Origin: Bacilli bacterium
GTDB lineage: Bacteria > Bacillota_I > Bacilli_A > RFN20 > CAG-826
Assembly (NCBI GenBank): GCA_041652475.1
Contig: JBAZHG010000002.1
Location: forward strand, 22,591 to 86,590
Direction of reading: 5' to 3'
DNA length: 64,000 nucleotides
Part shown: positions 1-41,719 of the stretch, piece by piece
How positions within the stretch are numbered: position 1 is the first letter of the stretch
Layout of the letters: each line of letters starts with the position of its first letter
Program-made: the position numbers and the translations under genes
The notes under the pieces: generated by a model
Told to the model about the DNA's origin: nothing
Seen by the model: only the letters and a program-made list of their open reading frames with translations
The model's database searches: none

Positions 1-12
1 CGTAAAAAGGTT

Positions 13-846
13 ATGACCTATGTCTTTTTGGTGCTTTTCGCCCTGGTCGCCCTTTTGCCGCTTTATTACCTGATCATCACCGCCATGAAAGACCTCGACG
101 AAGCCTCGACCCAAGCGACGATGTTCCCCCAAACGTTCGCCTTGTTCGAAAACATCAAGTTTGTAATCACCCATCCCGATTACCAGATCATCAGAATGTT
201 CCTGAACACGATGTTCATTTTCCTGATGAAGACGCTTGGGACCGTCTTGACCTGCTCGATGGCCGCCTACGCCTTCTCGATGTACAAATTCCCGGGCAAG
301 AACGTCATTTTCTTCATTCTTCTCTCAACCATGATGATTCCGGGCGAACTCCTCGGCATCCCGATTTACGAGTTCATGGTCAACGCCGGGCTCAAGGAGA
401 TCGCCTACATCCCGCTATGGATCGCCGCCTGGTTCGGAACCGACGTTTTCATGATTTTCCTGTTCAAGCAGTTTTTCCAAACGGTGCCCAAACCCCTGAT
501 CGAAGCCGCCCGCATGGACGGTTATGGCGAAGTGGCGATTTTCTTTAAGATCGTCCTGCCATTGAACGTCCCGGTCATCGTCACCGTGGTCCTCTTATAC
601 TTCGTCGGCACCTACAACGACTTGTATGGTCCGGCCCTCTATATTTCGGATAAATCGGCGTGGGTCATGGCCAACAGCATCTCAATTTTCGAAAACTTCT
701 ACCAGAGCGGTTCCAGTTCCTACCTCGTCCCGTGGAACTACGTCTCGGTGGCAAGCCTCATCGCCATGATCCCGGTTGTCCTCTTATTCAGTTTCATGCA
801 GAAAAAGTTCCTTCAAAGCATCGCCGGCGTCGGCATCAAAGGATAA
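13..846 (+). CDS. Carbohydrate ABC transporter permease (CUT1 family, MalG-type second permease)
   Basis: 277-aa ORF with multiple hydrophobic helices. It carries the EAA loop 'LIEAARMDGYGEVAIFFKIVLPL' typical of BPD_transp_1 sugar permeases. The partner permease and binding protein presumably lie upstream of the window. Confidence 0.85.
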   Translation: MTYVFLVLFALVALLPLYYLIITAMKDLDEASTQATMFPQTFALFENIKFVITHPDYQIIRMFLNTMFIFLMKTLGTVLTCSMAAYAFSMYKFPGKNVIFFILLSTMMIPGELLGIPIYEFMVNAGLKEIAYIPLWIAAWFGTDVFMIFLFKQFFQTVPKPLIEAARMDGYGEVAIFFKIVLPLNVPVIVTVVLLYFVGTYNDLYGPALYISDKSAWVMANSISIFENFYQSGSSSYLVPWNYVSVASLIAMIPVVLLFSFMQKKFLQSIAGVGIKG

Positions 847-852
847 ACCACT

Positions 853-1791
853 ATGAGCCAATTCAAATTGAATCTCGATTCACTGCTAGAAAGCCATCGC
901 TCCCGTCCGGGCATCGTTACCACCAAACGGCTTCATTTCTTAGGTTTGTCCGGCGCGGTCGATGTGTATAACATCTCGCGGGCTTTCACCTGGCGCGGCC
1001 AGGAATACATCGCCGGTCGGGTCGAACCCCGCGACAGCGAACTTTCCTCGGTCCGTTTCTTCAAACGGGTCGGCATCGATCTTTACGAAGCCCTGCCCCT
1101 CACCCTCAATAACCTGCAAGATCCCTGCGTCGCCTTCATCGACGGGTTTCTCCTTGTCGGGGGCACCGAAATCTATCCCGACGAATCCGGCCGCATCACC
1201 AGCTGGCGGACCGTCTATTACAAAGGCCAATCCCTCGACGACCTGCAACCAGTTATCTATGCCCCGATGCAAATGAAGGACGTCCGCCTCGCCCAATGCG
1301 GCCGTTATTACGTGATGTCGCGGCCTCAAGGCGGAAACGCCAAATGGGGCAAAATCGGTTTCACGACCAGCCCCGATTTGTCGGGCATCACCGCCGAGTT
1401 GATCGAAAAAGCCCCTTTGATCGAAGACCTGTTCGACGACGACCACTGGGGTGGGGCCAACCAAATTCATTGCTTGAAGAACGGCTGGCTCGGGATTCTC
1501 GGCCACGTGGCCCGCATGTCCGAGGGTTATGTCCGCCATTACTACGGGATGACCTTCGCCTTGAATCCCAAAACGTTGGAGCACACCCCCGTCAAAATCA
1601 TCTGCGAACGGGCCGACTTCGCCCCCGGGGCCGCCAAACGGCCCGACTTGACCGACGTCGTGTTCGTGGGCGGATTGGTCCGTCACAAAAACAAGACGGC
1701 GACGCTTTACACCGGTCTTTCGGACGCCGAGGCCCATTACGCCGTGATTGAAGATCCGTTCTTGGAGTACGAGGAGTTGCCGTCAAAATGA
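853..1791 (+). CDS. DUF1861-family beta-propeller protein (GH130-related), putative cytoplasmic beta-mannoside phosphorylase/hydrolase
   Basis: 312 aa with no signal peptide. The N-terminus 'GLSGAVDVYNISRAFTWRGQEYIAGRVEPRDSE' and overall size match my recollection of the DUF1861 family in the beta-fructosidase/GH130 clan. AAAGGA lies 9 nt upstream of the ATG. The gene sits directly after a sugar permease. Confidence 0.5.
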   Translation: MSQFKLNLDSLLESHRSRPGIVTTKRLHFLGLSGAVDVYNISRAFTWRGQEYIAGRVEPRDSELSSVRFFKRVGIDLYEALPLTLNNLQDPCVAFIDGFLLVGGTEIYPDESGRITSWRTVYYKGQSLDDLQPVIYAPMQMKDVRLAQCGRYYVMSRPQGGNAKWGKIGFTTSPDLSGITAELIEKAPLIEDLFDDDHWGGANQIHCLKNGWLGILGHVARMSEGYVRHYYGMTFALNPKTLEHTPVKIICERADFAPGAAKRPDLTDVVFVGGLVRHKNKTATLYTGLSDAEAHYAVIEDPFLEYEELPSK

Positions 1792-3257
1792 AACGACACC
1801 TTCCCATGGCATTGCTGGGTTTGACCCTCGTCATGTTGACGTCGTGCCTTTCGTCCAGCGGCGAAACGTCATCCGGAGAGTCTTCGTCCAGCCTCGAATC
1901 ATCGTCGAGCGAAACGACGCTCGCGGTCACCCCGGTGACCACCACGTTCGACTTTGACGCTCTTAATACCCTCGAATACCTTTACGACGTTGAGGAAATC
2001 GGCGCGATTTCCCATATCGAAGGCCATGGCATCGCCCAAGGCGACTATCTAGTCGGCCCGGACACGATTACCATATTGCCCAACTATTTGGTCGGGCTTG
2101 CCCCCGGCATCTATGAGCTCACGCTCATGACCACGCGGGGAAGCGCCATTCTTTCTTTCGACGTAATCGACCTCCACAATTTGAATCGGGTCGCTAACGC
2201 CTCGTTTGAAACCGGCGACCTGTTTGGATGGACGGCCCGCACGATATTCAAAGGGGAAGCCAACCTTCAATCTTTCACCGAGGAGGCGATCGTCCCCAAC
2301 GGCCAAGCCTTGATCGGCGAGGTCCCTTATGGGGCGGACGGGAATTTCCTCTTAGCCCGTCCCGGGACCATCGCCCGAACCGTTTATGAAGAGCGGATCG
2401 GCCGTTTGGCTTCGCGCCCCTTCGTTTTGGGCGGGAGCGGCTATATCACCTTCATGCTCGGGGCCGGCCAAGAAGCCGATTTGTCCCATGTGTCGATCAA
2501 ACGGGCCGAAGATCAAGTTGAAGTCGGCCGCTACGGCAATTCGAGTTTCGACGTCACCTCCGGGCTTTTGTCCTATTATGGGGAAAACCTCGTCGCCTAC
2601 CGAGCCGATTTGTCGGCGCAGCTCGGTCAATCGCTTTACGTCGAATTGATCGATATCGGGGGCCACGACTGGGATTATTTGACCTTTGACAACGTCGAGA
2701 CGTATCACGCTTCGATTCCGGAAGGGATCGACGCCATCGACATCCGGCCGACGTTTTTATCCGACATCGCCCCGAACCAAGTCCCGAATGGTACTTTCGC
2801 CGACTTGAGCTATTGGTCGGCGTCATCGGCCAGCGGCTGGAACGTGCCCGACAACACTTTCCGGGCCGATAACGGCTTATTGAAGAGCAATCAAGGCGGG
2901 GATGCCTCCCGGGGTTTGATCCGCTCGTCATTGTTCCGGGTCGACGGCTCAGGTTTCATCTCGATGCAGCTCGGGGCCGGGCAAGGATCACGTTTCGACA
3001 AGGATACCTTCGTCTCGATTCGACATGCGGGCACCAACGAAGAGTTATTCCGCTTTGCCAACACACGGCACGACGGAAGCACCATGCTCGCCTATTACCT
3101 CGACCTGAGCGATTATATGAACGATTCGTGCTACCTCGAAGTCCTCGACAATGGCAGCGGCAGTTGGGACGTTCTCTTCATTGACAATGTCATCACCTAT
3201 TACCCGGATCAGCCGAGCGTCACCTACGCGCTCATGGCCCGGAACCTCAATTATTGA
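1788..3257 (+). CDS. Surface lipoprotein with two LamG/CBM-like jelly-roll modules
   Basis: Lipobox 'VMLTSC' is followed by a Ser-rich linker. Two ~150-aa modules start 'NASFETGDLFGWT' and 'VPNGTFADLSYWS'. They contain 'GGSGYITFMLGAG' / 'DGSGFISMQLGAG' and end 'YVELIDIGGHDWDYLTFDNVETYH' / 'YLEVLDNGSGSWDVLFIDNVITYY'. The ATGA start overlaps the upstream stop. Confidence 0.75.
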   Translation: MKRHLPMALLGLTLVMLTSCLSSSGETSSGESSSSLESSSSETTLAVTPVTTTFDFDALNTLEYLYDVEEIGAISHIEGHGIAQGDYLVGPDTITILPNYLVGLAPGIYELTLMTTRGSAILSFDVIDLHNLNRVANASFETGDLFGWTARTIFKGEANLQSFTEEAIVPNGQALIGEVPYGADGNFLLARPGTIARTVYEERIGRLASRPFVLGGSGYITFMLGAGQEADLSHVSIKRAEDQVEVGRYGNSSFDVTSGLLSYYGENLVAYRADLSAQLGQSLYVELIDIGGHDWDYLTFDNVETYHASIPEGIDAIDIRPTFLSDIAPNQVPNGTFADLSYWSASSASGWNVPDNTFRADNGLLKSNQGGDASRGLIRSSLFRVDGSGFISMQLGAGQGSRFDKDTFVSIRHAGTNEELFRFANTRHDGSTMLAYYLDLSDYMNDSCYLEVLDNGSGSWDVLFIDNVITYYPDQPSVTYALMARNLNY

Positions 3258-3268
3258 AAGGATTGACC

Positions 3269-5800
3269 ATGCTCGCGACTTGGCGTAAAAAATGCTTGCT
3301 TCTTGGGACCCTCGTGACCGTTTTCGTCTTGCCTTCGTGCGCCTCGAGTTCCTCGGAATCTTCCCTAAGCGAAAGTAGTTCCAGTTCCATTTCCTCGAGT
3401 TCTCCGTCTTCAAGCGAAAGTTCCTCGAGCGAGGAACCGATCGTCCAAGAGATTGAAAACGGCGGTCTTGAGACCGGCGACCTGTCCGGCTGGACGATCG
3501 TCTCCGGACAAGCTTTTTCTAGTGGCGGGGTCAGTTCCCAAACCCAAGTCAACGGCTCGGTTGCTTATAATAAAGAAGGCACCTATTTCTACCGAGGCAC
3601 CAACGAAAACCTTGAAGGCATCCTCGAGTCGAGCGTGTTCGAGATCGCCGGGAGCGGTTACCTCACCTTCAAATTGGGCGGCGCCTACCTCCAGGCTTTG
3701 ACTTACATCTCTTTCGTCGACGCGACGACCGGAATCGAGTTTTACCGGGTCGGGAACAGCCGGTTCAACCTTCCCGCGAGCGGCTACGTCGACTACCGGG
3801 TCGAAAACATGGTCGATTATTACGTCGATTTGTCGGCCCACCGCGATCGGCTCGCCCGCGTACGCGTTGTCGACCAATCGACGGCCAATCACGGATATGT
3901 GACCTTCGACGGTTTTACCAGCTACCACGAAACGACGCCCGACCTCGCCGGTCGGACATTAGCCCCAAACATCATGCCGCTATTCACCGATTACGCGGGA
4001 ACGCCCGCTTCGCTATATAACGGCAATTTCGGCACCAAGACCTTGGCCGGCTATTCGGTCATCGGCGAAACGGGGGTCTACCGCGATTCGCACATCAACA
4101 GTTCGAATCGGCTTAGCAACCGCCCCGACGAAACCAAGATCGGCGTCTTGCGCTCAAGCGCCTTCAAGGTCGCCGGGTTGAACCTCATGTCCTTCCGGCT
4201 CGGGGCGACCAAACACCCCGATCTCACCTATATGTCGATTAAGAAAGTCGGCACCAACGAGGAAGTGTTCCGCACCTACTCCGACCGCTGGAAAGACGCC
4301 GACGAGGAAAATACCCACTTGTATCACGTCGATCTATCAAAGCATGAAAATTTGGCTTTGTATTTGGAATTCGTCGACAATTCCCGCGGCGATTGGGGAC
4401 TATTGACGATTGAAGCCATCGTCACCCACTATGCGGCCTGGCCTTCCGTCAATGACGAAATCGCCTATAACCTGCTCGATCGAATCGAGCAAAATCCGAC
4501 TTATCAAGCCATGCGCGCCTATGTCGACCCACGCATCGCCGCGATCGAAGACGCGACCACCCGCACCACCGTCAACAAAACTTTCTACGCTTCGATTGAC
4601 GGCATCTCGAATTCCAAGGGCACTTGGCCTAGCGTCATGAACTACTACAAAAACGGCAACACCTTCATCATCACCGGCGACATCGATGCCATGTGGCTGC
4701 GCGATTCCTCGGCCCAGGTATTGCCCTACCTCCAATTCATGACGATCGACGAAGACGTCCGGATCATGGTCAAGGGTTTATTGCGGCAGCAGTTCGAATT
4801 CCTTCGCCGCGAACAATACGCGAACGCCTACAACCCGGGCGGATCGGTCTTCGAACTCAAATTCGAAATCGATTCTTTGATTTACCCGTTATGGCTCGCC
4901 TACGAATACTATCGGATCACTAGCGACGACTCGATCTACGACCGTTTCTTCTGGATGGCCTTGACCGCGGTACTAGACACGCTTGACCAAGAACGCGACC
5001 ATGACGACGCCAATTATCGGATTTCGAATCAATCCGACCGCGACGCCGGCCCTCACGAAGTGAATACCGCTAGCGGCCTCATTTGGAGCGGCTACCGCCC
5101 GAGCGACGACGTCTGCTACTACAAATTCTTCATCCCCGGCAACATATTCGCCGTGGCTACGCTCGAAAAGATGGCCGACCTTTTAACCGCGCTCGGCCGC
5201 TGGCCGGAGACAGCCGCGCGCGCCGCGACCATGGCCAGCGAAGTCCGCTCCGCCATCGAAACCTACGGGGTCTACAACCATCCGACTTACGGCCGCATGT
5301 ACGCCTTTGAGGTCAACGGCTTCGCGAGCGACGCGAATTCTTCTTCCGGCAAGCTCTTGATGGACGCGGCCAACATCCCGAGCCTCCTAGCGATACCGTG
5401 GCTCGGCTACGCCCCCAAAGACGACGCCACCTATCTAAACACCCGCGCCTTCGCCTTGAGTAGCGGCAACCCCTATTATTACGAGGGAACCTACGCAAAA
5501 GGCATCGGCGATCCCCACGACGGCATCGGAGGGGCCAACCCCCATCCGGCGACGCCGGTACCCTGGCACATGGCCCTCGCCATGCAAGGGCTCACGAGCG
5601 AGGATCCCGCGGAAATCGAGACAATGATTTCCTACATGACGGCGACCACGGCGGGAACCTACGTCATGCACGAAGCCTTCAACGCCGACAACCCCAGCCA
5701 ATACAGCCGCGACTGGTTTACCTGGCCGTGCGCCCTATACGCCCATTTGTACCTGACCGAAATACTGAACATCGATCTCATCACGGAGGAGCTATCATGA
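3269..5800 (+). CDS. Lipoprotein: two LamG/CBM-like modules fused to a GH125 exo-alpha-1,6-mannosidase domain
   Basis: ATG 3269 lies 6 nt after AAAGGA; an in-frame TTG at 3254 is an alternative start. The signal 'LVTVFVLPSC' is followed by a poly-Ser linker. Modules open with 'IENGGLETGDLSGWT' and 'LYNGNFGTKTLAGYS'. The C-terminal ~400 aa carry the GH125 hallmark 'FIITGDIDAMWLRDSSAQVLPY'. Confidence 0.8.
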   Translation: MLATWRKKCLLLGTLVTVFVLPSCASSSSESSLSESSSSSISSSSPSSSESSSSEEPIVQEIENGGLETGDLSGWTIVSGQAFSSGGVSSQTQVNGSVAYNKEGTYFYRGTNENLEGILESSVFEIAGSGYLTFKLGGAYLQALTYISFVDATTGIEFYRVGNSRFNLPASGYVDYRVENMVDYYVDLSAHRDRLARVRVVDQSTANHGYVTFDGFTSYHETTPDLAGRTLAPNIMPLFTDYAGTPASLYNGNFGTKTLAGYSVIGETGVYRDSHINSSNRLSNRPDETKIGVLRSSAFKVAGLNLMSFRLGATKHPDLTYMSIKKVGTNEEVFRTYSDRWKDADEENTHLYHVDLSKHENLALYLEFVDNSRGDWGLLTIEAIVTHYAAWPSVNDEIAYNLLDRIEQNPTYQAMRAYVDPRIAAIEDATTRTTVNKTFYASIDGISNSKGTWPSVMNYYKNGNTFIITGDIDAMWLRDSSAQVLPYLQFMTIDEDVRIMVKGLLRQQFEFLRREQYANAYNPGGSVFELKFEIDSLIYPLWLAYEYYRITSDDSIYDRFFWMALTAVLDTLDQERDHDDANYRISNQSDRDAGPHEVNTASGLIWSGYRPSDDVCYYKFFIPGNIFAVATLEKMADLLTALGRWPETAARAATMASEVRSAIETYGVYNHPTYGRMYAFEVNGFASDANSSSGKLLMDAANIPSLLAIPWLGYAPKDDATYLNTRAFALSSGNPYYYEGTYAKGIGDPHDGIGGANPHPATPVPWHMALAMQGLTSEDPAEIETMISYMTATTAGTYVMHEAFNADNPSQYSRDWFTWPCALYAHLYLTEILNIDLITEELS

Positions 5801-8304
5801 ACACCCACAAACCGCTATTCGGCCTCTTGGCCATCATAACGTTGACGGTCACGGCCATCAACCTGCCGCTGCCGACTCAGGCGAGCGAACGGCTTTATGG
5901 CGTCGATTTGGCTTATAAGCGCCGGGTGGTGGCCACCGACCACACCGATGAGAATACGAACGTCAAAGCGGTCGACGCCGACCCGGGGACGCGCTATGCC
6001 GCCGCCAAGGAAAACGACGCCTACTTTTACGTCGACCTCGGTTCCCTCGAAAAGGTCGGCAAAGTAGTTATCGACTGGGAAGCGTCTTACGCCAGCCAGT
6101 ATCTCCTCCAGATGTCGCTGAACGCCATCGATTGGACGACGGTGGCCACGGTCAGCAAGGACAACAGCCAGAAAGACGAAATCGTCTTCCCGAATTGGCT
6201 CGAAACCAAATTTGTCCGTTTCCAAGGCGTCAGCCGCGCTTTGGAATATGGTTATTCCTTTTATAGCTTTGAAGTCTACGGACCGCAAAGCCTTGGGACT
6301 TCGGGTACCGTCGAATTCGTCTCCAGCAACGAGAACCCCGCCCAATTGCCAGGTCAAGCTATTCTTGACCTCCAAGCGCATACCCGCTGGGCTTCCTCCG
6401 TGGCCGACGACCAATACTTTTTGATCGATTTGAACTCGACCCAGACTTTCGACATGTTCAAAATCCGCTGGGAAGTGTCCTTTGCCCGCATCTTCCGCAT
6501 TTACGGGCATCCGGAAACGACGGGCGAAGCACCCGTTCGCGCCGATGAGGGGTGGACGCTCCTTGCCGGGACCGAAGCCGGGCTCGGCGAAGTCGACACT
6601 TTCAAGCTCGAGGCCGAAGCGACGACCCGTTTCATCAAGGTGGAACTGGTCCAGCGCGAGACTCACGAGACGACGAAGAAAACCGGACGCTACCCGTGGC
6701 AATCGACCTTTTCGATCTATTCGTTTGAATTGTTCGATTGGTCATCCATCATCGCCGCGCCTTTGGGTCGCCCGATGGAATTTTCCTACAACTCCCCGGC
6801 CTGGGCCAGCATGAGCAATATCACCCTGCACGACGGAGGGCTGATTCTCGCGCCGCAAGGCTATCCGATCGAAGCCGAAGGCCAAGTCACCAACATGGCC
6901 AGCATCGCCGACGGGGACATCCCCGGATTCGAATCTTACGGAACCTATAATCCGGCCGTCATCTACGACGAGGACCGGGCCATGTTCCATATGATCTACC
7001 GGTCGGAGCTCCCCGACCGTTTCGACACCTATTTCGGCGAGCGCTACGATCTCGGCCACATGTCGACGCTTTCGTACGCATATTCTTACGATGGCGTACA
7101 TTTCACCCGCGGCGAAAACAACCCGATTGCCTGGCCGACTTATAATTTCGAGGCAGGCGGCGGGCTCGAAGACCCGCGCATGTTCAAAATCAAAAACGAC
7201 CCCAACCGCGGCGGGGTGACGACTTATTACATCACCTACACGACGTATGACTATAGCATGACCCGCGAAGGGATGGTTTACACCACCGATTTCGAAACCT
7301 TCACCAAGGTCGAAGCCGGCCGGTTGGCCCCCAATTACGGCGACGCCCACAAATCGGGCACCTTCATCACCGATCCCGAAGGCAACGCCGTCAAAATACC
7401 CGATCCGCGTCCCGGGAAGCACGGCGAGGTCTACATGATGTACATGAAGGACGGCAGCTACACCCGGATCGGCTTCACCACCGACGTGATGAACATCGCC
7501 GCCGAGGACATCATCGACATCGACACCGGCGGTTATGGGACTAACGACATCGAGGATTTGACCAAAGGCAACGAATCGTGCATGGCCTTGACGAACATCT
7601 ACGGTCCCGACGACCAAGACATCTATCTGATGTACGGCGGCGGGGTCTTGTCCGATCCCAACATCGAAAAAGAGCAGCCGAACGTCACCGACTGGTTCTA
7701 TGCCCTCGGAGTCTTGAAGACGACCAAGAGCAACCCGTTTGAATTGACGAACGTCCGTCTCGACCTCGACGAGCCGACCATGTACCCGACCGACACCAAC
7801 AAGATCGATTACGGCCTGTTCCCGAACGGCTGCATGTTCGCCGATTCGATGATCCGCCACGAAGGCCGCTGGTACTTGTATTATGGAGCCGGCGACATGT
7901 ATGTCGGCTTGGCGACCGCCCGGGCCGATTTCGGCGCCGGAGCTTCTTCTTACAGCCATGATGGATCGCTAGTCACCGCCAGCACCATGGCCTTGAACAA
8001 ACGCTATGAAGGCACGAAAACGCCTTACGCCATCGAATACGTGCTCGAAGTCCGCGACTTGGACGGCAACCTTCTGGACACGGCCGTCAGTTCTTATTCG
8101 GTTCCGCATTTTTCAACCCTAGACTTAGGCAAGTACAGTTCCGGGATTCCCATCTCGGTTTCGATTGATCTCGACAATATCCTCGATTTGCCCAATGACT
8201 ATTACCTGACGAGTTATGTCCGCGAGGACGATACTTCCTCAATCGTCAATAATCCGTCCCACTACCTGGCCGTGACGCCCACCGTCACCCACATGCCGCG
8301 ATGA
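5797..8304 (+). CDS. Secreted CBM32-CBM32-GH130 beta-mannoside hydrolase/phosphorylase-family enzyme
   Basis: ATG 5797 follows GGAGGA (5785-5790) and forms an ATGA overlap with the GH125 stop. Signal peptide '...LPLPTQA'. Two F5/8-type-C (discoidin/CBM32) domains are present ('YFYVDLGSLEKVGKVVIDWEASYASQYLLQMSLNAIDW', 'YFLIDLNSTQTFDMFKIRWEVSFARIFRIYG'). GH130 motifs are 'TYNPAVIYDEDRAMFHMIYRSE', 'GGLEDPRMFKI' and 'GRWYLYYGAGDMYVGLATA'. Confidence 0.8.
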   Translation: MNTHKPLFGLLAIITLTVTAINLPLPTQASERLYGVDLAYKRRVVATDHTDENTNVKAVDADPGTRYAAAKENDAYFYVDLGSLEKVGKVVIDWEASYASQYLLQMSLNAIDWTTVATVSKDNSQKDEIVFPNWLETKFVRFQGVSRALEYGYSFYSFEVYGPQSLGTSGTVEFVSSNENPAQLPGQAILDLQAHTRWASSVADDQYFLIDLNSTQTFDMFKIRWEVSFARIFRIYGHPETTGEAPVRADEGWTLLAGTEAGLGEVDTFKLEAEATTRFIKVELVQRETHETTKKTGRYPWQSTFSIYSFELFDWSSIIAAPLGRPMEFSYNSPAWASMSNITLHDGGLILAPQGYPIEAEGQVTNMASIADGDIPGFESYGTYNPAVIYDEDRAMFHMIYRSELPDRFDTYFGERYDLGHMSTLSYAYSYDGVHFTRGENNPIAWPTYNFEAGGGLEDPRMFKIKNDPNRGGVTTYYITYTTYDYSMTREGMVYTTDFETFTKVEAGRLAPNYGDAHKSGTFITDPEGNAVKIPDPRPGKHGEVYMMYMKDGSYTRIGFTTDVMNIAAEDIIDIDTGGYGTNDIEDLTKGNESCMALTNIYGPDDQDIYLMYGGGVLSDPNIEKEQPNVTDWFYALGVLKTTKSNPFELTNVRLDLDEPTMYPTDTNKIDYGLFPNGCMFADSMIRHEGRWYLYYGAGDMYVGLATARADFGAGASSYSHDGSLVTASTMALNKRYEGTKTPYAIEYVLEVRDLDGNLLDTAVSSYSVPHFSTLDLGKYSSGIPISVSIDLDNILDLPNDYYLTSYVREDDTSSIVNNPSHYLAVTPTVTHMPR

Positions 8305-8318
8305 AGGAGGCTGAACCC

Positions 8319-10448
8319 ATGAACAAAAAACGTTTATTGCTACTGGCCTTGCTCGTCGCCATGCCACTGATTGCTTCTTGTGGAAGCAGTTCCCTCGCTT
8401 CTTCCGACTCATCGAGCCCCAGCAGCCAGGATTTGCCGCTTGTGGTTCCATCCGAAGTCGCCCTTGACGGACGAATCATCACTTGGTCGCCAGTATCCGG
8501 GGCCGAAGGCTATGACGTCAAACTCAACCAAGAAGACGATTACCAAACCCCAATTAACGAATTCGAACTGCCCGATTCCTATTTCGGGCCGCTTTCGATT
8601 GCCGTCAGGGCTTATCGCGGCGAAGAAACGACCGCATACAGCCCCGAGACGAACGTCACCGCCATTTTGACACTCGAAGCGCCGGGCAATTTCCGCCAAG
8701 AAGGCAGTGAACTCCTGTGGGACGCGGTCACTTACGCCACCGGCTATATGGTCAAGATCGATACCATCGAGCATTTCACCTTGTTGACCAGTTATGAACT
8801 GGATACGATCGCCCCAAGCCAAGCCCAAATCCGGGCCACGGGACGCAACGACGGCTATGTCGTCGCCAGCCCGTTCAGCGACCCGCTCCTGATTAAGGCG
8901 CCGCTGACCACCCCGACGAACATCACCTACACCGACGGCTTCCTGTCTTGGGACGCGGTCGCCAACGCCAGCTCTTATGAAATCGAAATCAACGAAATAC
9001 ACGATTTCACCAGCGACACGAACACAGTCAGTATCGGGTTCGATTTCGTGGGCGAGGTCGTCGCCCGCGTCAAGGCAAAAGCCACCGGGGATCAATATTT
9101 GGATTCCTCGTGGGGCGAAGCCAATCTATCAATCGACCCATTGACGCTGGCTCGTCCGACAAACCTATATATCGAAGCCGGGGTTTTGCACTTCAGCGAA
9201 GTGGCCCACGCGACCGAATACGAAATCTATTTGAACGATGAACTCGAAGACACCGTGACCGTGAATAGCTTTGTTTTAAGCGGCGAGATTCTGGCCCAGA
9301 TTAACAGTTACCTTCAAGTCAAAGCCATTTCCGCCATCCACAATCCTTCGCCATTGAGCGAAAAAGTCTTTATCGGCGCCGTTTTGGTCACGAACGAGGC
9401 CGAACTGCGGGCCATGGATAGCGTCGGGGCCTACACGCTCGCGAACAACATCGCGCTGACACTGCCTTGGATCCCGATTGATTTTGCCGGATACCTTAAC
9501 GGAGCCGGACACACGATCTCCGGCCTCAACCTGACCGGGAGTCAAAGCGCTACCGCGCTCGGCTTCTTTGGCACGCTGGAAGAAGCCACCGTCACCAACC
9601 TCTCACTAGAAGGTTCCTTCGACGTTACCTTAACCGGCTTTGAGCCTAATCTAGGCGGCTTAGCCGGAAGCGCCGAGTCGAGCATCCTAAGCAACCTTGA
9701 TATCGCCATCGACATCGCGGCCGTTGCCACGAACGGCATCGCCAATGTGGGCGGCATCGTCGGACAAAGCGCCTCGTCGACGTATACCAGGGTCATCTAT
9801 GAAGGAGCCATCGCAAGCGAACACGCCATCAGCGGCGGGTTCATCGGGGCAGCCGTCCAATCGAGCGAAGCGGTGACCATCCATAAAAGCGCCGCCCTCG
9901 GGACCATCGAGGTCGCCGGCGGAGAACAGAGCCCGACCGGCGGTTTCATCGGCCGCTTGATCGACAACTATCTGACCATCACCGAATCCAAAGCCCACAT
10001 CGACGTGACCGGCCCGAACTATGTCGGCGGCTTCGTCGGCTACATGGGCAGCGGCACGATTGAAAACTCCTATTCGAAAGGCGCGGTCACGGCGACGGGA
10101 ACGGCCATCGTCCACGTCGGAGGTTTCGTCGGACGGATGGAAGGCTACAACAACAAAGTCCGTTATTCAATCGCCATGACGACGATTGCCTATACCGCTG
10201 GCGACACGGTCCACGCCGGAGCCTTCGTCGGGGTGACCCCCGGAGGATCCATCGCCACCATCTATGTGTCCTGCCACTACGACAACACGATTTCGTCGCT
10301 TGACCGCATCGGCAATTACCCGGTCGGCCGGGGCGACGGCATCACCGGCAAGACTTCATCCGAACTGTTATCATTAGCAAACTATAGTTTGTCCATCTGG
10401 GATTTCAGCGGCGATTCGCCGCGGTTACTCTGGGAACTATTAGCTTAG
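8319..10448 (+). CDS. Surface lipoprotein: Fn3-like repeats followed by a GLUG-motif beta-helix domain
   Basis: ATG 8319 lies 8 nt after AAGGAGG (8304-8310). Lipobox 'PLIASC' plus Ser linker. There are at least four ~90-aa repeats with 'W..V..A..Y.(V/I)' ('ITWSPVSGAEGYDVKLN', 'LLWDAVTYATGYMVKID', 'LSWDAVANASSYEIEIN', 'LHFSEVAHATEYEIYLN'). These are followed by 'FAGYLNGAGHTISGLNL' and periodic 'GG(L/I/F)(A/V/I)G' turns (NLGGLAGS, NVGGIVGQ, YVGGFVGY, HVGGFVGR). Confidence 0.75.
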   Translation: MNKKRLLLLALLVAMPLIASCGSSSLASSDSSSPSSQDLPLVVPSEVALDGRIITWSPVSGAEGYDVKLNQEDDYQTPINEFELPDSYFGPLSIAVRAYRGEETTAYSPETNVTAILTLEAPGNFRQEGSELLWDAVTYATGYMVKIDTIEHFTLLTSYELDTIAPSQAQIRATGRNDGYVVASPFSDPLLIKAPLTTPTNITYTDGFLSWDAVANASSYEIEINEIHDFTSDTNTVSIGFDFVGEVVARVKAKATGDQYLDSSWGEANLSIDPLTLARPTNLYIEAGVLHFSEVAHATEYEIYLNDELEDTVTVNSFVLSGEILAQINSYLQVKAISAIHNPSPLSEKVFIGAVLVTNEAELRAMDSVGAYTLANNIALTLPWIPIDFAGYLNGAGHTISGLNLTGSQSATALGFFGTLEEATVTNLSLEGSFDVTLTGFEPNLGGLAGSAESSILSNLDIAIDIAAVATNGIANVGGIVGQSASSTYTRVIYEGAIASEHAISGGFIGAAVQSSEAVTIHKSAALGTIEVAGGEQSPTGGFIGRLIDNYLTITESKAHIDVTGPNYVGGFVGYMGSGTIENSYSKGAVTATGTAIVHVGGFVGRMEGYNNKVRYSIAMTTIAYTAGDTVHAGAFVGVTPGGSIATIYVSCHYDNTISSLDRIGNYPVGRGDGITGKTSSELLSLANYSLSIWDFSGDSPRLLWELLA

Positions 10449-10475
10449 TTTTCAAAAAATATAGGAGAATTGCTT

Positions 10476-12152
10476 ATGAAAAAGACCCTGTTACTGTCAC
10501 TAATAATGTTACCTTTCCTCTTTTTAGCACCTCGGCCAATCGAAGCCGAAGCCGCCCATACCCCGTATCAAATTCCAAACGGGGGTTTTGAAAACGGCGA
10601 CTTGACCGGGTGGCAGGCCTTTACTTTATGGAAAGGCGAATCGGGAATAGCCGCCTTCGATGAATCACTGGTGCACGGATACACCTATTTTGATGGGAAT
10701 TATACGTACAATCGTGACGACAACTATCAATTAGGCATTACTAGTCTGGCCGACAAAAATTCCGGCACCATCAAATGGAACCAAGCCGAGGAACGCATGG
10801 GCTATCTTCGTTCTTCCGATTTCATTCTTGGTGGAAGTGGCTGGGTAAGTTTTAAGCTCGGTGGGGGAAAAGCTCCCTCATTCGCTTATGTCTCGGTTAA
10901 AAAATCCTCCGACGACATTGAAGTGGCTCGATTCGGAAATCGGTGGTTCGATAATCGAACCGAAGCCAACCGCCAATTTGGCGGTAGTGGCAGCGACATC
11001 ACGAAAGCCGAGGCATTCTTGTTTCAGTATTATTTCGATTTATCTTCCGTGACAAGTCTAGGCACTTCCCTTTACTTCGTGCTGTCAGACACGAGCGCAT
11101 ATAACTGGAGCATTCTTTCGGCCGATAGTTTCATCACCTATTACGAAGATGAGCCAACCTATCATGCAAATGAGCTTGCAGTGAACATCTTACCGACGAT
11201 TCTTCTTGCCGGAGAGGCCACCGCCTCGATACCGAATGGGAATTTTGACACCGATTTGTCCAGTTGGTCAAACGTCGACGGCATCTTTAGATTGGATGCC
11301 AACACCGCGATTAGCAACCAAGGCGGCGACTCAATGCTTGGCGTGTTGCGCTCAAGCGCTTTTAAAGTGACTTCCGACTTAGATCATATTAGTTTCAAAT
11401 GGGCTGGAAGACTCGGCTTTGATAAGCAAGTGTTCGTCTCGATAAAAGAGGTCGGAACCAACATTGAGGTTTTGCGCTATGTCAAGAGATTAAATATTGC
11501 GAGCAGTTTTGCCGAAGGCACCCTGCAAAATCATATGTTAACCCTTACTTCGCTCAGTTATGAAAAAGAATACTATCTTGAATTTGCCGATAACGTCACG
11601 TCAAGTGAAAGTTTTTGGGCTGTCAGCAAGCTAGACGACGTTCAATTGATTACTGACACTCAGTATGACACTGAATATGGCGGAACCGGTTCTGGCGACA
11701 ACGCCGAACTAATTACCGGCTTACCTCTGTCGTTTGCCGTTAACTACAACCAAGACGCCGCTGCTTTCGCTTCATATTTCCTCGAGCAGACCGCACCTTA
11801 TTGCGAAACGCTCGAAGGGGATGATGTCGACTGGTCGGCATTGGCGAGTGAATATGCCACCCTATCGGGTGACGCCAAGGATTACTTCGTGGTCGACGGC
11901 ACCGATTCAGAAATCGTCGCCGCTCGGGAACGATATCTCTTTATGGTTGAAAAATACCCAACTTTGGCCGCAAACCTCTTCGTTGTGGATTCCGCCGGTG
12001 AACCATACAGCGACAGCTATGACCCGATTCTTCCGCCTGTTAATGGCGGCAGTAATTCCAACTTGGCCTTGATTTTAATGATTACCATCTCGGTTGGAAT
12101 GTTAGCCGGTACGGCCTTCATCTACCTACGGAAAAAGAACCGCGCTTACTAG
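10476..12152 (+). CDS. Secreted protein with two LamG/CBM-like modules, a Cys/Trp helical module and a C-terminal membrane anchor
   Basis: ATG 10476 lies 8 nt after AGGAG (10463-10467). Signal peptide 'LFLAPRPIEA'. Modules start 'IPNGGFENGDLTGWQ' and 'IPNGNFDTDLSSWS'. The C-terminal hydrophobic helix 'LALILMITISVGMLAGTAFIYL' is followed by 'RKKNRAY'. Confidence 0.75.
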   Translation: MKKTLLLSLIMLPFLFLAPRPIEAEAAHTPYQIPNGGFENGDLTGWQAFTLWKGESGIAAFDESLVHGYTYFDGNYTYNRDDNYQLGITSLADKNSGTIKWNQAEERMGYLRSSDFILGGSGWVSFKLGGGKAPSFAYVSVKKSSDDIEVARFGNRWFDNRTEANRQFGGSGSDITKAEAFLFQYYFDLSSVTSLGTSLYFVLSDTSAYNWSILSADSFITYYEDEPTYHANELAVNILPTILLAGEATASIPNGNFDTDLSSWSNVDGIFRLDANTAISNQGGDSMLGVLRSSAFKVTSDLDHISFKWAGRLGFDKQVFVSIKEVGTNIEVLRYVKRLNIASSFAEGTLQNHMLTLTSLSYEKEYYLEFADNVTSSESFWAVSKLDDVQLITDTQYDTEYGGTGSGDNAELITGLPLSFAVNYNQDAAAFASYFLEQTAPYCETLEGDDVDWSALASEYATLSGDAKDYFVVDGTDSEIVAARERYLFMVEKYPTLAANLFVVDSAGEPYSDSYDPILPPVNGGSNSNLALILMITISVGMLAGTAFIYLRKKNRAY

Positions 12153-12166
12153 ATCATCAAACCATC

Positions 12167-15019
12167 TTGAAACGTCCTCTCATTTTAATAATCGCCGTAT
12201 TGACCGCCACCGGTCTTCTCAATGCGAAACCGGCGCCTTATTTAGCAATGGCCGCCGCCGGATTTTCGCCGATTGCCATCTCAAGGATGGACAACCTTTC
12301 GACGAATCCGGCCGGTTATTCGTTCATCGACTGGAAAGACAAGACCGAAACCTACATCGATTTCTTATTCAACCGCGCGAACACGGTGACGACCATCGTC
12401 AACAGCACGCCCAGGGTTCAGCCAGTCAGTTGGTTGGCTACGGCTCCCAACGTCGATGCTTACTTTGGCGAATCAGGCAATCGAATCGTGGCTTTCCCAA
12501 GTTATTTTGGGATGAAGAACGATCCGAACATTGATACATCGCGAGGTGAAGGCATCGCCGTCCTGGCCGCGGTTTTGTCGGCCAGCCTCGTCGGTTACGA
12601 CATGACCGCTTACGCCCCCGAAGGTTCCATCCAGGCTCCGCTCGATTACGTCAGGCAAATGGTCAATTACTACGCCATCCATAATGGCGAAAAAGTCGTC
12701 TTGAACAACAGCTCAAGCAACACCGGGGGCAGCTGGTGGTATGAATTACTCCCCAGTTCCCTATTCACGGCGTTGGCCAGCATGTACCTCGAACGTCAAG
12801 ATTATGATGGGGCCTATCTTGAAGACATCCTGTTAAATATGGCCCGGCAATGGTACGCCGTCGTCGTGGCGGCCGGGGGAGCCAACGCCAATTTCAGCGA
12901 CCGCAAGTCATACAGCATCCGGAACGGTACCTTCACCTCCGGTGGCTGGAGCGAACCCGACGCGGCGGCCGGGATGGCCTTCGTGCTCTATATGGCCTAT
13001 AGCCACTTTAAAGCCGTACCCGCATATGAAAATGATGTCGTCAATTTTTTAAATGGCGCTAAATGGTGCATGAATTTCCTATCAAATCTCAGCTATAATC
13101 CGTTTTATGAGGTTTTGATTTACTTTGCGCCACTAGTGGCTGCCCGCATGAATCTCGAGCAAGGCACCAATTACAACGTCACCAAAATGATCAATTGGAC
13201 CTTGGACGGCTCCAGTGCCGTCCGGGGCGGTTGGGGTATGGTCAACGCCAATTGGGGCGGCTACAACACCCAAGGATTGATGGGCAGCCTGACCGACGGG
13301 GACGGCTACTCGTTCATGATGAACACGTTCGATGCCGCGCTCGGTTTCTTCCCTTTGGTCAAGTACCACCCCGGGTACGCCCGCAGCATCGGAAAATGGA
13401 TCCTTAACGTTTCCGACAGCGCCAAATACTATTATCCCGATTATTTGCCGGAGAATAACCAAACATGTTATGACTGGGCCGAGTTGAACGGAACCGGTTC
13501 TTTCATCGCTTATGAAGGACTTCGGAAAATCAATAAAAACAACGCCGCCAATTCACCGGCCGGATGGGGCGACCCGCTTGATTACGATTGGGGTCCCTTG
13601 ACCGATTTCGGCTACGGCAACAACCACGTCGGCTTTTTCGCTTCGATCGAAGCCACTAACGTCAACCGGGTCTTGCGGACCGATCTTAATGCCCATGATT
13701 TCTTTCAAGACCACGATTATGAAACCTACCTCTACTACAATCCCTATGACACTTACCAAAACATCGAAATCACGCTTGACGACGCCTACCTTTTCAACGT
13801 GACGTCGGGGCAGCGGCAAAGCCTCGATGCGATTGGATTCGGAAAATACTCATTCGCGCTTCCAAGCGGAGAAGCCGCGGTCATGGCCGTGATTCCAAAC
13901 GAAGCGACCATCACATTCGAAGGCGGGTGCATGTTCGCCGATGGGCGATTCGCGGCCCGGGTGCAACCAGGGTTGGTCACCTCGCGTCCATTGCCTCTGT
14001 CGGATGACAATCGCCTTGAAATCGCCACCAGTTATCCCGAATTCGTCAAACCCGACCAAATCGACATCTATTCCGGGACGGACCTGATCGGCCAAGCCGA
14101 GGTTGATGGAAATGCGGCCTCCGTTTCCATAACGATCAACCGAAGCGGAAATGGCTACCTACCAATCACCATCGTCCCGCTGCGAAACGATGTTCCAATC
14201 GAAACGAGAAACACGCGCGTCATCGTGATCGACGATGCGACGGTTCCGGTTTTAGACCCTCCGGGTGACTCCGATTTGGCCACCATGTTCCAATCGGCTT
14301 ACAGTGCTTGGAACGGAGGCACGAATCCCGATAAAGGCAGCTCCGACAATTACCGGGCCGCGGCCACGCTACTAGAATCCGGGGTCCGCTTGCGATTGAC
14401 GAGCGATACTTGGGGCGTAGCCGGAACAAGCCCGGTCAGCCTCGATTTTGATAAACTCGCCTTGCTTCAATTCCGCGTTATGGCCGTCTCGCATCGTTGG
14501 GCGGTCAAAATATTTGTCGCCGGAGGCGACCGTTGGGGCTATTACCTCAGCGGCGAAACCTCGGATACCGGTGTCGTCACCATCGACGTCGAAGAAAGCG
14601 CCCAAGCCCGCAATTCATCTTTTGCTTTTTCGGGCGTCAAGACTTGTTACGTTTGGTTTATTCCGGTTGGAGGCGCCAATGCCGAAATGACCATTTCCGA
14701 TTTGAATGTTTATTCAATGGCCAACGATCTGGAATATGAATTTCCTAACCCACAGGATTCTTCCAGTTCTTCATTAGATGAATCCTCAAGCGAATCATCC
14801 ACGAGCGAATCCTCTTCAAGCGAAAACGAATCGAGTTTCACTCCGTCAACATCATCGACCGGGAATTCTCTTCCCGCTTCGAATAGCGATCCGGATTCAA
14901 GCCCCGATTCGAATTCGACCATCAAAAAAGACGTATGGACCCGCAATCTTCCGGTCGTGTTGGTCAACTTGGCTTCGTTCGGAGCCTTCTTTATCCTCAA
15001 GAAAAAGAAGATGCTTTGA
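12167..15019 (+). CDS. Large (950 aa) secreted, C-terminally membrane-anchored protein of unknown function; candidate glycan-active enzyme
   Basis: TTG start gives 'MKRPLILIIAVLTATGLLNA', a signal-like N-terminus. The core is Trp/Tyr/Gly-rich. The distal part has a poly-Ser/Asp linker (~14755-14930) and the anchor 'LPVVLVNLASFGAFFILKKKKML'. I recognise no family motif. Confidence 0.6.
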   Translation: MKRPLILIIAVLTATGLLNAKPAPYLAMAAAGFSPIAISRMDNLSTNPAGYSFIDWKDKTETYIDFLFNRANTVTTIVNSTPRVQPVSWLATAPNVDAYFGESGNRIVAFPSYFGMKNDPNIDTSRGEGIAVLAAVLSASLVGYDMTAYAPEGSIQAPLDYVRQMVNYYAIHNGEKVVLNNSSSNTGGSWWYELLPSSLFTALASMYLERQDYDGAYLEDILLNMARQWYAVVVAAGGANANFSDRKSYSIRNGTFTSGGWSEPDAAAGMAFVLYMAYSHFKAVPAYENDVVNFLNGAKWCMNFLSNLSYNPFYEVLIYFAPLVAARMNLEQGTNYNVTKMINWTLDGSSAVRGGWGMVNANWGGYNTQGLMGSLTDGDGYSFMMNTFDAALGFFPLVKYHPGYARSIGKWILNVSDSAKYYYPDYLPENNQTCYDWAELNGTGSFIAYEGLRKINKNNAANSPAGWGDPLDYDWGPLTDFGYGNNHVGFFASIEATNVNRVLRTDLNAHDFFQDHDYETYLYYNPYDTYQNIEITLDDAYLFNVTSGQRQSLDAIGFGKYSFALPSGEAAVMAVIPNEATITFEGGCMFADGRFAARVQPGLVTSRPLPLSDDNRLEIATSYPEFVKPDQIDIYSGTDLIGQAEVDGNAASVSITINRSGNGYLPITIVPLRNDVPIETRNTRVIVIDDATVPVLDPPGDSDLATMFQSAYSAWNGGTNPDKGSSDNYRAAATLLESGVRLRLTSDTWGVAGTSPVSLDFDKLALLQFRVMAVSHRWAVKIFVAGGDRWGYYLSGETSDTGVVTIDVEESAQARNSSFAFSGVKTCYVWFIPVGGANAEMTISDLNVYSMANDLEYEFPNPQDSSSSSLDESSSESSTSESSSSENESSFTPSTSSTGNSLPASNSDPDSSPDSNSTIKKDVWTRNLPVVLVNLASFGAFFILKKKKML

Positions 15020-16225: not shown

Positions 16226-16235
16226 ATGTTTCTCC

Positions 16236-17273: not shown

Positions 17274-17315
17274 ATTTTCGCTCGCCTCCATGTGATGGGT
17301 ACGAATTCCATAGAA

Positions 17316-17344
17316 ATTATACCCCGATTGGGAGCGACTTTCAA
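17316..17344 (-). promoter_or_regulatory. Sigma-A-type promoter of tdh-kbl
   Basis: On the minus strand: TTGAAA (17344-17339), a 17-nt spacer, then TATAAT (17321-17316), about 25 nt upstream of the tdh ORF. Confidence 0.55.
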
Positions 17345-17477
17345 AAACTTACGGATGGAAACGCCTTCGCCGAGCCAGCCTAACCGCATAAGGGCGATTA
17401 TATTCGGCCTGACACGATTCGTATCTTGATTATCAACATGGAATATTCATACAATTACTTCGACCGAGGACGTGAAA

Positions 17478-18719: not shown

Positions 18720-18746
18720 TCGAATTTTAAAAAATCAATTAGCAGA

Positions 18747-19643: not shown

Positions 19644-19787
19644 GGGCGTACCTTCTTTAGATTGATTTCGTCTTGGAAATTATTTTCATTTATATTATAG
19701 GTTCATTTTCACGCCGGGGAAGATTCTATCGGCATATTTACGAAATATATCGTCAAATTGATGTTGTTTTGCGAATAGTCAACGATC

Positions 19788-20537: not shown

Positions 20538-20542
20538 GGAGG

Positions 20543-21502: not shown

Positions 21503-21568
21503 TTAAATAACGCCATTAATCGAGGGATGGCTCATCCATCGTCAAAACGGATGGACGGCCGTCAATCG

Positions 21569-34597: not shown

Positions 34598-34605
34598 AAC
34601 GTCTC

Positions 34606-36540: not shown

Positions 36541-36542
36541 TT

Positions 36543-41686: not shown

Positions 41687-41719
41687 AAACTTAAGTGGTC
41701 TGGTTAATGAATACTTATT

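Follow-up and report, generated by a model that had tools for sequence, protein, structure and literature searches.

In Gram-positive bacteria, the co-location of a regulator, a transporter and at least one glycoside hydrolase is an established concept, the Gram-positive polysaccharide utilization locus (gpPUL). Two described systems come closest to the locus examined in this study. One is the pairing of the GH130 enzyme BT3780 with the GH125 enzyme BT3781 in Bacteroides thetaiotaomicron (5A7V and 2P0V, respectively), where BT3780, encoded in a yeast-mannan locus, takes the beta-1,2 caps off Candida mannan (PMC4599007). The other is the Teth514_1785-1796 cluster of Thermoanaerobacter sp. X-514, which contains an ATP-binding cassette (ABC) transporter together with the oligomannan phosphorylase Teth514_1788 and the mannobiose phosphorylase Teth514_1789 (PMC4264767). 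The locus described here runs into one end of a 64,000-nucleotide stretch of DNA from a Bacilli bacterium (referred to below as the window; G000:C2:22591-86590, where G000 is assembly GCA_041652475.1 and C2 is contig JBAZHG010000002.1). It is composed of a lacI gene and 13 further genes, numbered g02 to g14 in their order, and is probably a LacI-controlled catabolic operon that harvests a glycan containing beta-1,2- and alpha-1,6-linked mannose. The solid basis for this reading is the order of the genes, the families to which their products belong, the conservation of catalytic residues and the conservation of synteny.

Like the B. thetaiotaomicron system, the locus pairs a GH125 protein (g10) with a GH130 protein that is probably of the non-phosphorolytic type (g11; GH130_3 in BT3780), both with their active sites kept, and it combines lipid-anchored surface enzymes with a putative glycan-binding lipoprotein (g09, which is SGBP-B-like in fold). 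In contrast to that system, import is by an ABC transporter, and there is no outer membrane and no SusC/SusD; no TonB-dependent receptor or SusD family was present among the Pfam matches of the 14 locus proteins, which sets the locus apart from the Sus-type polysaccharide utilization loci (PULs). It also lacks GH92, GH76, GH38 and GH99 partners, while two predicted cytoplasmic beta-1,2 phosphorylases (g04 and g08) are added. At the protein level, g11 belongs to a separate clade from BT3780 and adds two CBM32 domains, an inserted DPRPG motif and a further domain at its C-terminus, whereas g10 differs from BT3781 by two additional modules that resemble carbohydrate-binding modules (CBMs). With the Thermoanaerobacter cluster, the locus shares the layout of a one-direction operon in a monoderm, with an ABC importer, then two (here predicted) phosphorylases that would each take chains of different length, and mannose-1-phosphate as the product; however, it has GT108 and GH130_4 proteins instead of two GH130_6 enzymes, a large extracellular stage is added, and there is no mannose-1-phosphate guanylyltransferase gene. 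Carrying LacI, a solute-binding protein (SBP), two permeases, a GH125 and two GH130 genes on one strand, the locus falls within the definition of a gpPUL. An earlier note on this window, made from its sequence alone, had suggested that a lipoprotein-based equivalent of the Bacteroides systems in a monoderm would be new. The Gram-positive principle of regulator, ABC transporter and glycosidase is already known, as is the rule separating hydrolases from phosphorylases in GH130, and what is new is the content of the locus.

Eight closely spaced ORFs (open reading frames) on the forward strand occupy window positions 1-15019, as the earlier note had described, and the junctions that it gave at 1788, 3254 and 5797 were confirmed. 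Start and stop codons overlap at 1788-1791 (ATGA), 3254-3257 (TTGA) and 5797-5800 (ATGA), with a further ATGA at 8301-8304. Starts better supported by Shine-Dalgarno sites exist at ATG 3269 (g10), ATG 8319 (g12) and ATG 10476 (g13); these alternatives give spacings of 11-27 nt and leave the close packing unaffected. The same note had proposed a single transcriptional unit of ~15 kb, which agrees with the packing and with the 3' end at 15019, where the run stops because the downstream gene (15056-16225, an aminotransferase) is convergent. The proposed extent was too short, since the 5' part, including lacI, lies outside the window. The locus begins 8.5 kb 5' of the window with lacI, g02-g06 and the start of g07 (G000:C2:14101-22590), in a source assembly of 1.07 Mb and 60 contigs that is 78% complete. 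In full, the operon consists of 13 co-oriented genes over about 22.4 kb (G000:C2:15258-37609) plus the LacI regulator, and window positions 1-15019 make up its distal two thirds. The LacI-family regulator (C2:14101-15099; assigned by Pfam) is encoded on the same strand as the operon and is separated from g02 by a gap of 158 nt, after which the genes overlap or are spaced by no more than 27 nt throughout all 13. An exact LacI/cre-type palindrome, AGAAACCGCTTTCA, is located at G000:C2:15211-15224 (= L003:12612-12625), a few bases 5' of a TATACT box before g02. This motif occurs once in 20 kb, a count that is not significant alone, and it is only the position that is suggestive; the site could be the operator of the LacI repressor or a catabolite-control site. 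Promoter and terminator scans gave results at chance level.

The GH125 protein g10 (3254..5800; this and all other operon genes in the window lie on the + strand) is an 848-aa lipoprotein. PF06824 matched it with 362 bits (cut-off 23.4) over residues 450-832, corresponding to model positions 26-412 of 414, and its closest solved relatives are 3on6 and BT3781 (2p0v), with E values of 1e-85 to 1e-83, followed by CpGH125 and SpGH125 in the PDB (E about 1e-73). In the characterized enzymes the catalytic acid is D266 (BT3781), equivalent to D218 (Sp) and D220 (Cp), and acts with E393 and R405 (PMC9425025). The whole set is kept in g10 as the acid D618 (motif RPSDD), the base E807 (MHE) and R819, at +12 from the Glu. 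The N-terminal part of the protein carries the lipobox LPSC, a Ser-rich linker and two CBM-like modules at residues ~64-440 that are recognizable as internal repeats. SpGH125 and CpGH125 share with g10 the catalytic domain, its residues and a monoderm host, but they are single-domain enzymes linked to N-glycan breakdown, whereas in g10 the catalytic domain is part of a lipoprotein that has two additional modules of a binding type and is encoded among genes for beta-1,2-mannosides. Judged by these similarities, g10 is most likely an exo-alpha-1,6-mannosidase at the cell surface.

The following gene encodes g11 (5797..8304), an 835-aa secreted protein with a signal peptide, two CBM32 domains (aa ~49-330), a divergent five-bladed GH130 propeller that spans aa ~365-708 and, at the C-terminus, a domain of ~125 aa, identified through Pfam, the PDB and NCBIfam. 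PF00754 (F5/8 type C) matched with 80.2 bits in two stretches, for which the nearest PDB relatives are the chitosan-binding modules DD1 and DD2 of a Paenibacillus glucanase/chitosanase (E 2e-17), while PF04041 matched with 57.2 bits (cut-off 26) over model positions 34-140 only, the first third of the model. The earlier note had named both proteins from the window alone, as a lipoprotein GH125 and as a signal-peptide-bearing GH130 with two CBM32 domains, and both assignments hold: g10 through its Pfam match, lipobox and catalytic Asp/Glu/Arg, and g11 through PF04041, the two PF00754 stretches and a signal peptide without a lipobox. The CBM32-CBM32-GH130 architecture is unusual because a 2020 survey of 6308 GH130 sequences found no CBM on any of them (PMC7660257). 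The hydrolase-type structures 3taw, 5a7v (BT3780), 3r67 and 3qc2 align along the entire GH130 domain of g11 (E 4e-13 to 6e-11), phosphorylase structures match the N-terminal part of this domain only, and bridging homologues align with g11 from end to end. On NF058598, the equivalog model for the beta-1,2-mannosidase BT3780, g11 scored 66.7 bits against a cut-off of 550 and is therefore a relative of the BT3780 group, not a member. Its clade is isolated, with two clusters at 50% identity followed by a drop to E 4e-25 in a HMMER search of 1.84 billion representatives.

Active-site residues of BT3780 (PMC4599007) were mapped onto g11 in an alignment that included ~20 bridging sequences from the HMMER search. 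Ten of the 12 positions are identical and two are conservative. N74 corresponds to N385, R89 to R402, E141/D142 to E458/D459, W160 to Y484, K199 to K519, Y302 to Y635, Y338 to F675, F344 to F681 and D363 to D700. The proton donor D459 and the -1 subsite residues N385, Y635, F681 and D700 are invariant in 21 members of the g11 family, as are the two carboxylates at possible base positions, D552 in the column of E227 and E593 in the column of E268 (motif NESC, at the start of the next blade). The shared columns read HRP in phosphorylases, WGE in BT3780 and MKD in g11, and the column of the phosphate-binding His holds Gly614. Within GH130, hydrolases and phosphorylases are told apart by a signal peptide, the presence of a base and the loss of phosphate residues, and an E/K pair at the +1 subsite goes with the beta-1,2 linkage, whereas beta-1,4 enzymes have a Y/R pair (PMC7660257). 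The E/K pair is present in g11 (E458/K519; compare E141/K199 of BT3780) and in g04 (E128/K176). These residues suggest that g11 is most likely a beta-1,2-mannoside hydrolase. In a first MAFFT run, DPRPG (g11 536-540) had been a candidate for the phosphorylase HRP phosphate motif; bridging homologues show it to be a family-specific loop insertion. A separate observation concerns a 343-aa GH130 of the g11 clade (L042:7539-8570; motifs STEDPK, NAVKLNGKYLMY and YEVACAI), which has no signal peptide and is located in a Clostridia metagenome-assembled genome (MAG) near a GT108 gene and a g02 homologue. The clade apparently has cytoplasmic members, which bears on the question of hydrolase versus phosphorylase.

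Two proteins without export signals may act on beta-1,2-mannosides inside the cell. The first, g04, is a 342-aa cytoplasmic GH130 encoded on the same strand between g03 and g05. It aligns in full length with Lin0857 of Listeria innocua (5b0p; E 2e-89, residues 6-339) and with Uhgb_MS from the human gut (9EQQ; E 1e-80), compared to E 6e-32 for UhgbMP, and keeps E128-D129, K176, R194, R234 and H253. With the two nearest enzymes (5B0P, 9EQQ) it has in common its catalytic Asp, its E/K pair, its Arg/Arg/His set for phosphate binding and the lid loop, which aligns to Lin0857 52-105 and restricts GH130_4 enzymes to di- and trisaccharides (PMC12814180). On the NCBIfam equivalog model g04 scored 384.7 bits, below the cut-off of 550, and it is most likely a Lin0857-like GH130_4 beta-1,2-mannobiose phosphorylase. 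The second, g08 (853..1791), is a DUF1861 protein of 312 aa without a signal peptide that PF08950 matched with 298.8 bits (cut-off 28). Its relatives in the PDB are the Leishmania mexicana MTP1-7 proteins (6Q4W-6Q50), with E values of 1e-38 to 8e-30 for MTP-4, MTP-2 and MTP-1. DUF1861/MTP is the CAZy family GT108, which is alike to GH130 in fold and mechanism but distinct from it (PMC12814180, PMC10913872). The earlier note had described DUF1861 as GH130-related and connected with beta-1,2-mannosides, which is correct as to structure and theme but not as to family membership. The sole characterized bacterial GT108, AsGT of Anaerocolumna sedimenticola, is both a phosphorylase and a transferase (PMC10913872). 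Aligned with the MTPs, g08, a full-length member of DUF1861/GT108, has the catalytic D90 (D94 of MTP2), D291 and the phosphate pocket K142, R157, H218 and Y230; the reference pocket is K136, R153, H212 and Y229 of AncA, with R150 in MTP4 (PMC10913872). The position of R150 in the phosphorylase-competent MTP4 is occupied by R157 in g08 and by His in the pure transferase MTP2. It is by these features that g08 is a candidate GT108 beta-1,2-mannoside phosphorylase/transferase. The Leishmania family turns over an internal reserve, whereas g08 is part of a bacterial uptake and catabolic operon. The theme of beta-1,2- plus alpha-1,6-mannosides recognized in the earlier note thus stands, with BT3781 and BT3780 as the nearest solved relatives, and g04, which lies outside the window, strengthens its beta-1,2 part.

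Two other exported proteins carry CBM-like modules. The 489-aa lipoprotein g09 (1788..3257; lipobox LTSC) consists of a Ser-rich linker, a CBM_X2-like Ig domain and two CBM-like modules, and g13 (10470..12152) is a 560-aa secreted protein with two such modules, a C-terminal region and a C-terminal transmembrane (TM) anchor. BLASTP within the locus showed that a tandem pair of one module is common to g09, the N-terminal half of g10 and g13 (31-36% identity; g13 versus g09, 36%, E 1e-49), with the signature NxxFExGDLxGW. Although g09 itself had no match in Pfam, NCBIfam or PDB sequences, its homologues contain a CBM_X2 Ig-like domain in 15 of 22 cases and a weak CBM_4_9 in six of 22. The AlphaFold2 (AF2) model of g09 (predicted local distance difference test, pLDDT, 86.7) is all-beta with a jelly-roll module, and its top Foldseek match is B. 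thetaiotaomicron SGBP-B (7kwb, E 1e-9), followed by CBM-like domains of Vip3 and GH101, reelin repeats and CBM22/CBM4; the TM scores of these matches are low because the domain arrangement differs. The label 'fructan beta-fructosidase' on some JGI homologues of g09 was set aside as a domain-level mislabel. Accordingly read, g09 is a candidate non-catalytic surface glycan-binding lipoprotein, g13 is most likely a non-catalytic protein of CBM-like modules, and the NxxFExGDLxGW module is a CBM-like unit outside the known classes that would serve in targeting the GH125 protein and g13 as well. Between g11 and g13 lies g12 (8301..10448), a 715-aa lipoprotein (lipobox IASC) with ~4 Fn3-like repeats and a GLUG beta-helix region (Pfam Glug); this region has weak similarity to the N-terminal, non-catalytic portion of the S. 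pneumoniae IgA1 protease (E 7e-4). The gene adjoins the GH130 gene in nearly all related loci, and g12 is a candidate non-catalytic scaffold or tether for g11. Upstream of the window, between g02 and g04 on the same strand, g03 encodes a 646-aa lipoprotein whose sole match is a Big_2 domain. NCBIfam had no match for g02, g03, g08, g09, g12, g13 or g14.

The operon opens and closes with a pair of paralogues. The 686-aa lipoprotein g02 is its first gene, on the same strand and 158 nt after lacI, and g14 (12167..15019) is the last, encoding a 950-aa secreted protein that has a Ser-rich linker and ends in a TM anchor; the two share 29% identity across 595 aa (BLASTP, E 9e-60). No match to g14 was found in Pfam, NCBIfam or PDB sequences. 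The model of g02 (pLDDT 90.2) shows an (alpha/alpha)6 barrel followed by beta-sandwiches, and resembles most closely in fold the beta-L-arabinofuranosidases of GH127/GH146 (E 5e-8, TM score about 0.3, 10% identity), with GH9, GH15 and an epimerase as more distant matches. The order of barrel and sandwiches is that of HypBA1 and BT3674, but the conserved cysteines behind the GH127 mechanism, with its Cys nucleophile and Cys/Glu metal site, are missing, and in 33 homologues the sole near-invariant Cys is the lipobox C21; membership in these families was rejected. Invariant Asp and Glu residues are nevertheless present in the g02 family (33 homologues). In one Clostridia MAG, a distant g02 homologue directly follows a GT108 gene (51% identical to g08) with lacI, GH130 and Big_2 genes nearby, and in a genome with proteins carrying type IX secretion system (T9SS) tails, another distant homologue adjoins a GH2 beta-mannosidase and a GH130 (E-D, NKN, HRP and YH motifs). 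Because of this repeated co-location with mannoside enzymes, the family likely works in mannoside breakdown, by cleaving or binding, and g02 and g14 are candidates for new glycanases on the strength of the modeled fold. The sole cultured carrier, Cohnella candidum, has a homologue of 31% identity that stands alone, in an uninformative context. Beside it in CP033433 (L041:2076-8486) are 6.4 kb without any ORF of at least 150 aa, probably an rRNA operon.

The importer of the CUT1 type is encoded by three consecutive genes on the operon strand between g04 and g08: the SBP g05, a lipoprotein; the permease g06, directly before g07; and the second permease g07 (1..846; Pfam BPD_transp_1, NCBIfam UgpE/MalG-like), which is truncated by the window edge, since its true ATG (C2:22534) precedes window base 1 by 57 nt. 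In the proposed pathway, lipid anchors or TM helices at the C-terminus would fix the surface enzymes and binding proteins to the membrane, with g09 and g13 binding the glycan non-catalytically. There, g10 would trim alpha-1,6-mannose and g11, possibly tethered by the adjacent GLUG/Fn3 lipoprotein g12, would hydrolyze beta-1,2-mannosides outside the cell, while g02 and g14 may supply the missing chain-cutting activity. Oligosaccharides would be taken up by g05 and the permeases g06 and g07 with an ATPase from elsewhere, after which g08 would phosphorolyze the longer beta-1,2 chains and g04 the di- and trisaccharide. The products, mannose-1-phosphate and mannose, would pass through phosphomannomutase (PMM) and mannose-6-phosphate isomerase (PMI) to glycolysis; the genome encodes one PMI and three genes of the phosphoglucomutase (PGM)/PMM family.

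Conservation of the locus was examined by tblastn of the 14 locus proteins against 31 loci with 10-kb flanks, all of them found in MAGs (Bacilli, Izemoplasmatales, Acholeplasmatales, 'Tenericutes', Erysipelotrichia and Clostridia) in a scan of species-representative genomes. The CBM32-CBM32-GH130 architecture itself comprises about 90 protein clusters. The g09-g10-g11-g12 block occurs together in about 25 of the 31 loci. Most also have GT108, and genes g03-g07 are found wherever the 10-kb flank reaches. A true counterpart of g14 was found in one locus only (68% identity), and g13-like matches are widespread at 32-54% identity, though hard to tell from cross-hits through the shared module. Two distant loci have GT108, GH130 and the GLUG protein without GH125. 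Some carriers come from the rumen, caecum or human gut and many from digesters, sediments, lakes and other waters. In the host order, the GH130 is carried by eight of 301 sampled genomes (4 of 65 genera), which makes the locus an accessory trait; base composition gave no sign of recent transfer, at 53.9% GC in the locus versus a genome mean of 52.4% (52.8 ± 1.9% in 20-kb windows). A side observation is that in a Bacilli MAG ~67-80% identical in the core genes (L005:14822-20569), the locus stops after the GLUG protein, and an opposite-strand CBM26-like protein and two GH30 genes replace g13 and g14, which makes the distal end of the locus variable. The host is probably a wall-less, single-membrane, Mollicutes-like Bacilli cell, because the genomes of its family are small (1.0-1.4 Mb), no penicillin-binding transpeptidase (PF00905) was found in the 78%-complete assembly, and the exported locus proteins have lipid or TM-helix anchors, g11 having a cleavable signal peptide without a lipobox.

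Several points weigh against the proposed pathway. All activities, in the locus and in its close relatives, are inferred, as are the division of labor by chain length, the tethering of g11 and the substrate. Two exo-acting surface enzymes would release mannose only, without a known source of oligomers for the cytoplasmic phosphorylases; the gap could be filled by the barrel proteins or by an endo-acting g11. The GH130 domain of g11 is distant from characterized enzymes (E about 1e-13, roughly 25-30% identity) in its isolated clade, the alignment around E227 is ambiguous, with two possible registers, and where phosphorylases have their phosphate-binding Arg, g11 has an invariant Lys (K551), which leaves residual use of phosphate by g11 possible. 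The expectation in the earlier note that the exported GH130 is hydrolytic, examined through the alignment of phosphate residues, is favored by the carboxylates E593 and D552 and by the change of His to Gly614 but not by K551. Some GT108 enzymes are pure transferases, and the active-site Arg is not diagnostic of a phosphorylase (PMC10913872). No GH92, GH38 or GH76 was found in the genome assembly, and at 78% completeness such absences are provisional. A more specific proposal, in which the locus is a complete apparatus of wall-less Bacilli for harvesting glycans at the surface, made mostly of parts not yet described, g02 and g14 are a new GH family that cuts beta-1,2-mannoside chains internally into the oligomers used by the importer and the two phosphorylases, g12 holds g11 at the membrane, and the NxxFExGDLxGW module is a new mannan-binding CBM family, is rather improbable as a joint claim. 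To our knowledge, no endo-acting enzyme on beta-1,2-mannoside-containing chains has been described.

As for the substrate, mannan of fungal origin and a beta-1,2-mannoside polymer from another source are about evenly matched, and each is a tentative suggestion. The locus may be the monoderm counterpart of the Bacteroides yeast-mannan PULs, acting on Candida-type mannan with its alpha-1,6 backbone and beta-1,2 caps, as the earlier note had proposed. The nearest solved relatives of its GH125 and GH130 domains are BT3781 and the cap-removing BT3780, the resemblance of the g11 CBM32 to chitosan-binding DD modules fits a fungal wall, one relative has two GH30 genes in an adjacent divergent locus, and some carriers are gut or rumen MAGs. 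Other points speak against this substrate. In Bacteroides, GH92, GH38 and GH76 are the families that remove the alpha-1,2/alpha-1,3 side chains and cleave the alpha-1,6 backbone; none of them was found in the 78%-complete genome, there is no known enzyme here for either task, and a backbone that bears substituents is closed to an exo-acting GH125. The presence of two predicted beta-1,2 phosphorylases in the cytoplasm implies that beta-1,2 oligomers are imported rather than short caps, and many carriers come from digesters, sediments and lakes. In addition, beta-1,2-mannose has other sources, such as the O-antigens and capsules of bacteria, further yeasts, moulds and the mannogen of protists (PMC4264767, PMC7660257). 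It is equally conceivable, if doubtful, that the substrate is a bacterial or protist beta-1,2-mannose polymer or oligomer, such as polymannose O-antigen, capsule or mannogen from lysed cells, with the GH125 serving a second, alpha-1,6 component. Three of the four recognizable catalytic proteins point to beta-1,2-mannosides, the classical alpha-mannan enzymes were not found in the incomplete genome, and the locus is patchy in the order (8 of 301 genomes) and comes from varied anoxic habitats; the Thermoanaerobacter cluster, where an ABC importer goes with long- and short-chain beta-1,2 phosphorylases and the source polymer is unknown, offers a precedent (PMC4264767). On the other hand, GH125 is nearly always encoded beside GH130, which argues for alpha-1,6- and beta-1,2-mannose in one substrate, and bacterial beta-1,2-mannose polymers have not been reported with alpha-1,6-mannose.

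Two further explanations would change the role of the locus itself. If it processed N-glycans, the GH125 would trim the alpha-1,6 arm and the GH130s would handle the Man-beta-1,4-GlcNAc core, comparable to pneumococcal and Bacteroides pathways. The GH125 enzymes of S. pneumoniae and C. perfringens, which match g10 at E 1e-73, do act in N-glycan breakdown (PMC5215778), and phosphorylases for Man-beta-1,4-GlcNAc exist within GH130. N-glycan use is nonetheless very unlikely, because both GH130s carry the beta-1,2 E/K pair rather than the beta-1,4 Y/R pair (PMC7660257) and partner enzymes are missing: in Pfam, nothing in the locus matched an endo-beta-N-acetylglucosaminidase, GH20, GH38 or GH92, and the genome assembly has no GH38 or GH92. 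Moreover, g04 is nearest to Lin0857 and Uhgb_MS, with UhgbMP only at E 6e-32. Since GT108 makes mannogen and GH130_4 has weak GDP-mannose transferase activity (PMC12814180, PMC10913872), g08 and g04 might instead build or recycle an internal beta-1,2-mannan reserve like Leishmania mannogen, which would make the locus partly anabolic. This is highly improbable, as both genes overlap and share their orientation with those for an SBP, for two permeases and for exported hydrolases, all preceded by the gene of a LacI-type repressor, a layout for uptake and catabolism, and no nucleotide-sugar genes were present among the Pfam-scanned locus proteins. A LacI-controlled catabolic operon for a beta-1,2- and alpha-1,6-mannose glycan is thus the preferred reading.

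Downstream of the operon, the flank at window positions 15056-22681 encodes a class I/II aminotransferase, a Zn-dependent alcohol dehydrogenase, a 415-aa HTH_3 protein, an RpiR/SIS regulator, a Y_phosphatase3 protein, an RDD-family protein and, at 21569..22681 on the - strand, a MalK/MsmK-type ABC ATPase (Pfam ABC_tran and OB_MalK). Because none of the locus genes encodes an ATPase, this protein is a candidate shared energizer of the importer, and it is the only one of the flanking genes with a plausible link to the locus. Farther along, window positions 34001-42000 have a G+C content of 0.40-0.455, compared to about 0.50-0.57 elsewhere in the window, and may be foreign or otherwise distinct DNA.

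In the literature searched, no paper described this combination of genes, no bacterial GT108 had been placed in a catabolic operon or physiological pathway, and neither a CBM-bearing GH130 nor the three unnamed surface families had been described. The locus is the first catabolic context for a bacterial GT108 in that literature. For the beta-1,2-mannoside phosphorylases of GH130_4, GH130_6 and GT108, the natural bacterial substrates and upstream steps are unknown, and the locus ties such proteins genetically to exported enzymes and binding proteins. It also brings forward three families of interest, namely the barrel paralogues, the shared CBM-like module and the GLUG lipoprotein beside g11. 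Finally, these findings indicate that apparently wall-less bacteria with genomes of about 1.1-1.4 Mb devote about 2% of their DNA to one glycan.

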